From a virus (lineage: Duplodnaviria; Heunggongvirae; Uroviricota; Caudoviricetes): a DNA stretch of 45,692 nt. This document shows, in pieces, positions 27,501 to 30,500 of this stretch. Every line of letters starts with the position of its first letter. Positions within the stretch are counted from its first letter, which is position 1. Position numbers: made by a program. Location: the IMG/VR virus record IMGVR_UViG_2651869695_000008. One strand, given 5' to 3'.

Positions 27501-30500
27501 GGTCAATTTGACCAGCAGGCCAACGATTATGAGTTATGTAAAAAACTAAGACGTGAGTTTTATATCTACGCCCATCTATCATGATCATTGAATAACCGTT
27601 GGAATCAAAAGTTCCAGCAACACTATTTAATGCTATCCTTCCCTGAGTGGGAACTTTCCATCTAAATACCCCGGTAGATTTATCGAAACTTAGTAACTCA
27701 AATATCCTTTTAACAGTTAAATCTTCTCTTTTACGGTTACATCGTCTTCGCGCTGGTTTAGCCATCGCCTTCTTCCTCCGTAATGGTTTTCTGAATTTGG
27801 CCACCTGAACAGAGCTCACCAAAGCTATGGATGTCGGTATTTCCACAATACCAAGATGGCGAAAATAACTGCATGATAAGCCTCAGGGAAAAGGGAAGAC
27901 ACTACCCCCGATAATTCAGAAACAAATCGAAATACATGAACTAAAGAAAAATCACAACAAATAGAAATAGAAATAGAAATAGAAATAGAAATAGAAATAG
28001 AAATAGAAATAGAAATAGAAATAGAAATATTAAAACAGACCACCACATTCCTGATGTCATACTCACTAAACAATTTTTCGACAACATGGTAGCTCATAGC
28101 ACGTTATCGTGTAGACACCCTCTGCTACGTATTCGGTGTTCAGTGCAATATCTACAAATACTGGAAAAATCTAAAATCGAGGCAAGTTTTTAGTGATAAC
28201 TATAGTTAGACTATATTGACGACCTGATGTGCTGTATGTAATAACTAACAAAAAATATTTTCCATGGGATTTTTTATTTTAATGAAATGCAAAATATTTT
28301 TATCAATAGTTAGTATTATGGAAAACCATTAATTCAGGAGGAAACTTGATTCCAAATTCAACTTCAAATAAAGGTTATGTATGCATTGACATGCAGTGTT
28401 CGTCAACCTCTGAACCAACAGCTTCTACCTCCAGCAACCGGAGTATTAAATTAGCCGCTTCCACAAATGTATATCCGATAACAAGAAACGACTCCGAGCT
28501 CACTCTGAACGATTTTCTTGATAATAGCTCTTCTACGTCATCATTGGACTACATTAATGAATTGGGTTCTCAACTGACGTTAAATGATTTTCTTGACAAC
28601 ATAAAGACAAATGAGGTGGATAGAACATGTACGGATGTGGTAATTAATATCCCACAAGAGATACAAACAAATACACAGGAAAATGATTTGTTATTATCCG
28701 ATAAAAATAATTCAATATGCATTGAAATCGATGAAAGAATTACAAAAATCCTAACATGCAAGCAAAAATATCAACTAGACAGCATCATTCATGAAATTAT
28801 ACCAAAAGAGAATGAGAGTGCAGAAACTGTTCTCCATCTTATGAGAGTTCTGAACGATCAATATCATCAGGTATATAATCAGTCAGGATGTTTTTATAAA
28901 GCCTATATGGCCATACACAATAAAATCGAACAGATACTTCCATATGCGTTCAGAGCCGGAGGCGGAATCAGCATTCACTTGCTCATACAGGCATTATTTT
29001 TTAATGGCGACTATAACAAATCACCTTCACAGTCTCAACAACCATCTTTATATACATCACCTTCTCCAACAATAAATACAGAAGCATTCTTAAGTAATGT
29101 ATTATCACTAGATATAACCCAGGTACGCATACTTGGTGATTTACTATCAGCAACTTTATTTCATGCACCAACAATATTCTATCAATATCCTAAACTAATA
29201 GATGAAGTTAAGTATTGTATAAGTAATAAAAAAATAACAGGTTCGGTTATAGCACGATTTACTCTATGTTTAACAAGTACATTACTAACCATGTCACCAC
29301 TGTTAATGCTTAATGGAGCAGTTAAAACAGGTAGCATAGTAAGAACTATAGGTAGGGGAGTGAGTTATGCTGATATACCATTGGCCTTAGCTATATTAGG
29401 TGACTCATGGTATAAAGCTTATAAACATGGTTCTTCTGATAACCCAAATTCTGCTCAGAGATTTATATCGCAAGAAGCGGCCTTTAAAACCACCCAGCGG
29501 GTATTAACACAAGGATTAAGTCTGATGTCCTCTTTATCGGGAGCAATCATGCGCTCTCTTGAGAAAGGCACACCACCACAAATGATGTCTTTATTCATCG
29601 TAAACATACTAAATCTATTATTTCATCAAAATCCATATGAAGGGGCATCAGCAAGTGCTAATGCTTTGAAAAGATCAACTTACTCCCATAATCCGGACAT
29701 ACTAAATACTCAGGCAATAGCTCTTTGTGTTGACCTCCAGCATACAAAAAATATAACCATGCCACTTTTCAAAACAAAAGACAGGATATCTTACGCATTC
29801 AATGGACAAAGAACATCCCCAGAAGACCAAAAACAAATACTGAAAGAAGTTATAAACTCCTGTACCCAAGGAGAAAGAGCCATTTTAAATACATCACAAT
29901 CAGAAACATGCAAACATAAAATCGATGAGATTTATGAAAAAAGATTCTCAGAAACAGAACTAAATACATTACCAAACGAAATGAAAAATTTCTTGATATT
30001 TTTGAACAAAACTCATGAGAAAGATATTTCGCGTTTAAGCATTGGTAACGAAGTTAATGAAAAAATAATTGCAGTTATAGTCAAGACGTTAGCATATAGA
30101 GAGTCTATGTTGTGTTAGACTTTAACTCTACATTGATATAACATTAGCCAAATATTCAACAGTGTATGCGACCAAACACCAACATGTCGCATACATATAC
30201 AATTTGAATATTTAATTATATTTACTTAATGTATTTCTATAAAAGCAAATTACAAACTCACAACAAAAAACCTCATAACACATTAACAATCAATTCTTTT
30301 CATCTTTATAAATTCTCATATCAGGCTTGCACCCGATAAACCGACGAAAACTATTTAAAACCCATCGAGTGAAGTAATCTCTAAAACCAAAGAAATACCA
30401 AGTGAAAATATTCACGATAAAATGCCCGGTCAAAGCCCCTCCTGTACCGCATGCAAGAACAGTAAAAAATCAGATGTTTTCATAAATATCAGTCCTCATC

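Follow-up and report, generated by a model that had tools for sequence, protein, structure and literature searches.

An AAATAG microsatellite in the nin region of a lambda-like Escherichia coli prophage is the O157 typing locus VNTR-9 (TR1, Vhec4, O157-9)

Introduction

Simple-sequence contingency repeats are found within open reading frames, between the -35 and -10 elements of promoters, or upstream of genes as rheostats, examples of the last being the heptamer repeats of hmw1A and hmw2A and the TAAA tract of nadA. In Haemophilus influenzae, the heptamers upstream of hmw1A and hmw2A give graded control. Like the tract described in this study, such loci in Haemophilus, Neisseria and Campylobacter consist of a pure, short-unit repeat near gene starts that changes length frequently by slippage. 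The present tract differs from them in that its 6-bp unit cannot cause a frameshift and in that it is too long for a core promoter and lies about 190 bp from the gene starts.

A second group of related loci comprises the hexanucleotide repeats used for multilocus analysis of variable-number tandem repeats (MLVA) of E. coli O157. One of these bears several names, of which TR1 reportedly comes from Noller et al. 2003, Vhec4 from Lindstedt et al. 2003 and O157-9 from Keys et al. 2005. VNTR-9, Vhec4, TR1 and O157-9 are given as a single locus in two published tables (PMC3768571, Table 1; PMC3321953, Table 1). The repeat unit of TR1 is AAATAG and its forward primer is ACTGCATGATAAGCCTCAGG (PMC2246123, Table 2), and the forward primer for VNTR-9 is GCGCTGGTTTAGCCATCGCCTTCTTCC (PMC3321953, PMC8461963), with a published amplicon size range of 474-614 bp (PMC8461963). 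Among 202 German O157 isolates the locus had 6-23 repeats, distributed over 15 alleles with a diversity index of 0.90 (PMC3321953). The 6-bp O157 MLVA loci gain and lose whole units at rates of 1e-5 to 1e-3 per generation, with a slippage bias such that insertions make up 59-67% of events; during serial passage, single-unit insertions arose at Vhec4 at about 4.3-4.6e-5 per generation, O157-10 mutated about ten times faster, and Noller et al. are noted to have observed mutation of the Vhec4 locus as well (PMC3777172). Other members of this group, O157-10/TR2 and O157-3/TR5, are likewise short perfect hexamer arrays that vary by whole units and serve only as typing markers, but they have other sequences and occupy other genomic sites.

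The DNA analyzed here, referred to throughout as the window, is a 45,692-nucleotide stretch (IMG/VR record IMGVR_UViG_2651869695_000008) that corresponds to a lambda-like E. coli prophage whose early-right and late genes lie on the minus strand. An initial annotation of the window had noticed a perfect hexanucleotide repeat and had proposed that its expansion and contraction could phase-vary promoter spacing for the gene on either side. Here, we describe a comparative analysis of this tract, which is the already known MLVA typing locus VNTR-9/TR1/Vhec4/O157-9 of E. coli O157.

Results

Prophage setting and properties of the tract

The prophage integrase gene (43204-44274) lies beside a host gene encoding a Pectinesterase domain, which we take to be ybhC. 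The gene order is S24-peptidase repressor, O, P, Dam methylase, NinE, a 590-aa ORF on the plus strand and the spacer bearing the tract, beyond which follow an HNH endonuclease gene, NinG, a metallophosphatase gene, Q and terminase. The tract is thus located in the nin region, in the spacer that separates the HNH gene (minus strand) from the 590-aa ORF (plus strand). These features form an island with a GC content of 30-40%, as against about 50% in the phage backbone:

27100 to 30550, no strand assigned: low-GC island seen in the composition profile, comprising the HNH gene, the 590-aa ORF and the tract-bearing spacer between them
27199 to 27765, minus strand: left neighbor, HNH endonuclease gene of 188 aa (Pfam HNH_3, phrog_99, PGAP, BLASTP)
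27947 to 27951, no strand assigned: poly-A run left of the tract, a second, mononucleotide slippage site 8 bp from it
27959 to 28029, no strand assigned: perfect (AAATAG)11.8 microsatellite (Tandem Repeats Finder, sequence reading, counts in homologous loci)
28346 to 30118, plus strand: right neighbor, 590-aa ORF, called the cargo gene in the initial annotation (phrog_9230, function unassigned; homologue contexts)

Hundreds of complete E. coli genomes contain a 3-kb segment with the tract at 99% identity or more, as do the Stx1 phages SH2026Stx1 and AU6Stx1.

The tract is evident on direct reading of the sequence, and Tandem Repeats Finder (TRF) reports it with period 6, 11.8 copies, 100% matches, 0 indels and a score of 142. 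The TRF consensus, AAATAG, is the same repeat as ATAGAA in another phase. The initial description of a perfect repeat of about 11 units at 27959-28028 is therefore confirmed, except that the array ends one base further, at 28029. It contains 65 successive lag-6 matches, compared with at most 11 in 200 shuffles and an analytic expectation of about 4e-35, and is by far the longest periodic run of the 45.7-kb window. The 71-bp tract is 83% A+T. Its right end is 317 bp short of the TTG codon (28346) with which the 590-aa ORF begins, in agreement with the roughly 320 bp originally stated, and its left end is separated by 194 bp from the HNH gene's ATG (27765, minus strand), which gives a measure to the adjacency claimed for the endonuclease gene start. 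The neighboring poly-A run varies as well, being A5 in the window and A5, A6 and A7 in 7, 30 and 3 loci, respectively.

The HNH protein of the window is identical to ECs_3504 of O157:H7 strain Sakai at 187 of 188 positions (BLASTP). Just upstream on the same strand, a 38-aa ORF (27757-27873, minus strand) ends in ATGGCTAA and overlaps the HNH start codon, an arrangement that suggests possible translational coupling to HNH; the annotation of SH2026Stx1 calls this ORF a hypothetical protein.

The tract corresponds to VNTR-9 in an un-rearranged form

The published forward primers of TR1 and VNTR-9 both match the window exactly, to the left of the tract, where 0 such matches are expected by chance:

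27750 to 27776, plus strand: VNTR-9 forward primer site GCGCTGGTTTAGCCATCGCCTTCTTCC, an exact match that overlaps both the start codon and the ribosome-binding site of HNH
27868 to 27887, plus strand: TR1 forward primer site ACTGCATGATAAGCCTCAGG, an exact match
28030 to 28043, no strand assigned: right flank TTAAAACAGACCAC, the 14 bp still common to O157:H7, with the IS30 end abutting here in prophage Sp17

The repeat unit in the window, as given by the TRF consensus, is the published unit of TR1. The position is orthologous, the HNH-plus-tract arrangement being present also in prophage Sp17 of O157:H7 Sakai, by ECs_3504, and the left flanks of the window and Sp17 are 99.6% identical. In-silico PCR with both primer pairs on five O157:H7-type loci yields TR1 products of 270-312 bp and VNTR-9 products of 496-538 bp, the latter falling inside the published size range.

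Neither published reverse primer has a site in the window, even with up to 3 mismatches allowed, and in the O157:H7 loci both reverse primer sites lie inside an IS30 remnant. Every other defining feature of VNTR-9 that we tested is present in the window. The window therefore represents the same locus in its un-rearranged form, consisting of HNH, tract and 590-aa gene. The locus in Sp17 shares with the window the AAATAG unit, the left flank with both forward-primer sites, whole-unit length polymorphism, the HNH neighbor (a 99% identical protein) and the first 14 bp of the right flank; it differs in that an IS30 remnant begins 14 bp right of the tract, a point past which the window has the original spacer and then the 590-aa gene. 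It also follows from the placement of the reverse primers that strains with the intact cassette would score as null in the standard PCR despite having a variable tract.

The IS30 junctions were compared in Sakai Sp17 (our locus L003, 3260-4091) and in loci L008, L009 and L010 (657-1500). In O157:H7, the end of IS30 is found 14 bp right of the tract, and IS30 and other DNA stand in place of the 590-aa gene. Sp17 carries a form of the locus cut by IS30 at this point. Strain SMN197SH3 lacks the tract, but on the right-hand side, next to the 590-aa gene, it has an IS30 fragment that begins or ends at roughly this position. These arrangements suggest that IS30 inserted at this spot and that rearrangement followed.

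As it stands, the identification is of little consequence, in that a VNTR employed in outbreak typing of E. coli O157 since 2003 has been found again. Two modest practical points arise from it: the un-rearranged form of the locus is described, and null alleles are to be expected for strains with the intact cassette. The literature that we searched for the function of Z3935/Z3936/ECs3504, or for a regulatory role of the locus, consists of typing papers only.

Copy number varies by whole units between near-identical flanks

Units of the tract were counted directly in 42 loci, namely the window and 41 fetched ones with the right flank TTAAAACAGACC. A bare (AAATAG)4 marker was rejected as a means of defining the family: searches of viral and genome collections with it returned unrelated AT-rich microsatellites from diverse bacteria and giant-virus bins, and since this motif is common in unrelated AT-rich genomes, only loci sharing flanks were retained. 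Across the 42 loci the shortest pure array has 4.8 units and the longest 23.2, and 23 different lengths occur; the spread is continuous, with no preferred allele class. Loci whose flanks are at least 99.6% identical carry anywhere from 5.8 to 23.2 units. A 471-nt query centered on the tract gives match lengths that step by 6 bp in a spread sample of 524 E. coli genomes. Allele lengths extend from 29 to 139 bp, and no allele under 4.8 units was seen in about 100 loci.

Comparison across isolates thus reveals a variable copy number rather than an invariant one. The whole-unit variation between near-identical flanks, taken together with the mutations recorded on passage (PMC3777172), supports the original proposal that the tract expands and contracts by slipped-strand mispairing. 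Some alleles contain degenerate units (AAACAG, AAATGG), and these are confined to the HNH-proximal end, a polarity in keeping with growth and homogenization of the array from one end. In the reading that we favor, replication slippage changes the length of the tract in whole 6-bp units and purity is maintained at the right end, while older, degenerate units linger at the HNH-proximal end.

The tract does not occupy a promoter position

The suggestion that copy number might phase-vary promoter spacing for either neighbor is not borne out, as no sigma-70-like site spans or abuts the tract. A consensus promoter scan of 27600-28500, the stricter of two, found nothing, and a position-weight scan placed the best plus-strand promoter-like sites at 28177-28245. 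In the spacer alignment, from which row L084 was left out, E. coli and an E. albertii prophage share the block TATATTGACGACCTGATGTGCTGTATGTAATAAC without a difference, whereas their sequences have diverged immediately downstream of it. Conservation of this block beside diverged DNA indicates that it is likely to contain the core promoter of the 590-aa ORF, which is thereby predicted to lie about 187 bp right of the tract:

28216 to 28245, plus strand: candidate core promoter for the 590-aa ORF, TTGACG-N17-TAATAA or TTGACG-N15-TGTAAT (prediction from the weight scan and spacer alignment)

The size of the tract is also informative, since at 29-139 bp it exceeds any promoter spacer and so cannot lie between a -35 and a -10 element. 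Nor does translational phase variation apply: a unit of 6 bp cannot shift the reading frame, and the sole ORF across the tract is an unconserved (Ile-Ser)n frame.

The association of the tract with its right-hand neighbor does not extend beyond the prophage. Homologues of the 590-aa gene at 71% (E. albertii), 50% and 48% identity (Salmonella and Providencia) have no such tract upstream, and the chromosomal members of the family can be aligned with the DNA of the window only from about 24 bp ahead of the start codon. The tract belongs to the prophage cassette and not to the gene. Conversely, in O157:H7, a young clone without the 590-aa gene, the tract is still equally variable, with at least 4.8 to 12.8 units. 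Thus neither placement in a core promoter nor retention with a regulated gene, the features by which we tested for a phase-variable promoter repeat, was found.

The 590-aa ORF and its family

The TTG start of the 590-aa ORF is also called by PGAP in other genomes. The N-terminus of the protein is rich in Ser and Thr, and its core is helical and in part hydrophobic. The protein has no match in Pfam or PADLOC, and comparison with PDB sequences produced nothing credible, the one match being at chance level (E = 0.39); an AlphaFold2 model built with 19 homologues was unusable (mean pLDDT 37.9, pTM 0.26). Our search placed the family in E. coli, E. albertii, Salmonella enterica and Providencia alcalifaciens and nowhere else. 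Because the 71%-identical E. albertii copy adjoins nleF and an AvrPphF/HopF-like gene, the protein may be an undescribed type III effector, a candidacy that derives from distribution and neighborhood only. In O111:H8 strain 9662 (locus L007, 2030-3442), the ORF is annotated in two pieces, which belong to the half-length PHROG families 14900 and 13344, and the gene is therefore apparently inactivated in some lineages. An inverted repeat, GTATGCGAC-N13-GTCGCATAC, lies 45 bp past the stop codon of the ORF (30163-30196, plus strand) and may be its terminator; the consensus scan missed this repeat because the loop is long and a T-run is lacking.

Discussion

Identity with a known typing locus, copy-number polymorphism and lack of association with the neighboring gene family are direct observations of this study. 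From them we infer that this non-coding spacer of the prophage harbors a microsatellite that is hypermutable but neutral in function, a reading to which we assign a probability of roughly 0.85. The possibility that the spacer specifies a structured RNA, or one of a known family, was considered and rejected, as a search of Rfam gave no match in it even at E<=1 and its fold does not surpass those of shuffled sequences (z = -0.41). Some observations may be set against neutrality. The pure array persists in prophages whose spacers have diverged (the spacer alignment has 85% identity over its whole length, copy-number gap included), with 6 units remaining in E. albertii locus L015; this persistence, and the lack of alleles below 4.8 units, could reflect either insertion-biased slippage or weak selection for keeping the tract. 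The tract is also situated in a divergent AT-rich intergenic region, a kind of region in which upstream elements can matter.

An alternative is that the tract acts as a rheostat, in which its length would alter the distance or helical phase between upstream sites and the promoter of the 590-aa ORF or of HNH, or would set the length of an AT-rich platform for nucleoid proteins such as H-NS, either of which would permit stepwise tuning; this is the initial proposal in a weaker form that acts over a longer range. The high A+T content of the tract and its island, the divergent genes on both sides, the rapid mutation and the perfect purity of the array across diverged prophages are all compatible with such a function, for which the Haemophilus influenzae heptamers upstream of hmw1A and hmw2A would provide a precedent by analogy. 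We nevertheless regard it as improbable. The predicted core promoter is distant and no promoter-like site flanks the tract; allele lengths are spread continuously, with no preferred classes; the tract is not tied to the 590-aa family outside the prophage cassette; its polymorphism is undiminished where IS30 has removed the right-hand gene; and strain O111:H8 9662 has the 590-aa ORF in two pieces. As for the left-hand gene, the early rightward transcript of lambdoid phages is N-antiterminated, and HNH would be expected to be expressed from this transcript.

Effects at the level of RNA appear less probable still. The minus-strand RNA of the tract has the composition U48 A12 C11 G0 and the repeat unit (CUAUUU)n, so that it is free of G and presents a C every 6 nt. 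It is enclosed by an apparently untranslated stretch of about 2.7 kb from ninE to HNH: between about 30440 and 27765 there are only short minus-strand ORFs, and of these only one is annotated in the loci that we fetched, a 64-aa gene that immediately follows ninE in locus L015. The RNA of the spacer is unstructured, and in lambda the nin region holds terminators that N overrides. A G-free, C-periodic RNA within an untranslated stretch could therefore act as a length-dependent, rut-like Rho loading site that sets the amount of N-independent transcription into HNH, ninG and Q. This argument is purely compositional, however, and with C at only about 15% the tract is far from a classical C-rich rut site. 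Moreover, the untranslated stretch as a whole would expose RNA to Rho in any case, and the literature searched contains nothing that ties the locus to phage induction phenotypes.

The least probable of the alternatives, and one to which we attach hardly any weight, is that the tract encodes an (Ile-Ser)n segment of a small minus-strand protein. The 6-bp unit preserves the reading frame, and PGAP calls a hypothetical protein of 60, 68 or 84 aa across the tract at 11.8, 15.2 or 23.2 units, respectively. The call depends on the tract being long enough, however, and short alleles receive none. The frame is unconserved and has no match in Pfam or PHROG, the annotation of phage SH2026Stx1 omits it, its ATG is not preceded by a Shine-Dalgarno sequence, and the single-nucleotide A5/A6 indel changes its C-terminus entirely. 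With no ribosome-binding site and a C-terminus altered in this manner, the (Ile-Ser)n ORF is not a credible gene, and we rejected it.

If the tract did tune the prophage, either by adjusting a candidate effector, the 590-aa protein, through an AT-tract or H-NS effect, or by adjusting early transcription into HNH, ninG and Q through a rut-like RNA, then MLVA alleles would carry phenotypic meaning, bearing on effector expression or on late-gene activation. We consider this improbable, and none of the evidence gathered here points to tuning of expression by the tract.

Three further elements of the window were recorded in the course of this analysis. Apart from the tract, its sole sizeable tandem repeat is at 7105-7228, with a 54-bp unit, 2.3 copies, 80% identity and a TRF score of 164. 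A full-length match to the Hfq-binding sRNA isrC (Rfam RF01387, 135 bits) lies near the left end of the prophage at 965-1087 on the minus strand, and the lambda cIII thermoregulator element (Rfam RF01804, 88.5 bits) is matched over its full length at 38662-38720 on the plus strand.
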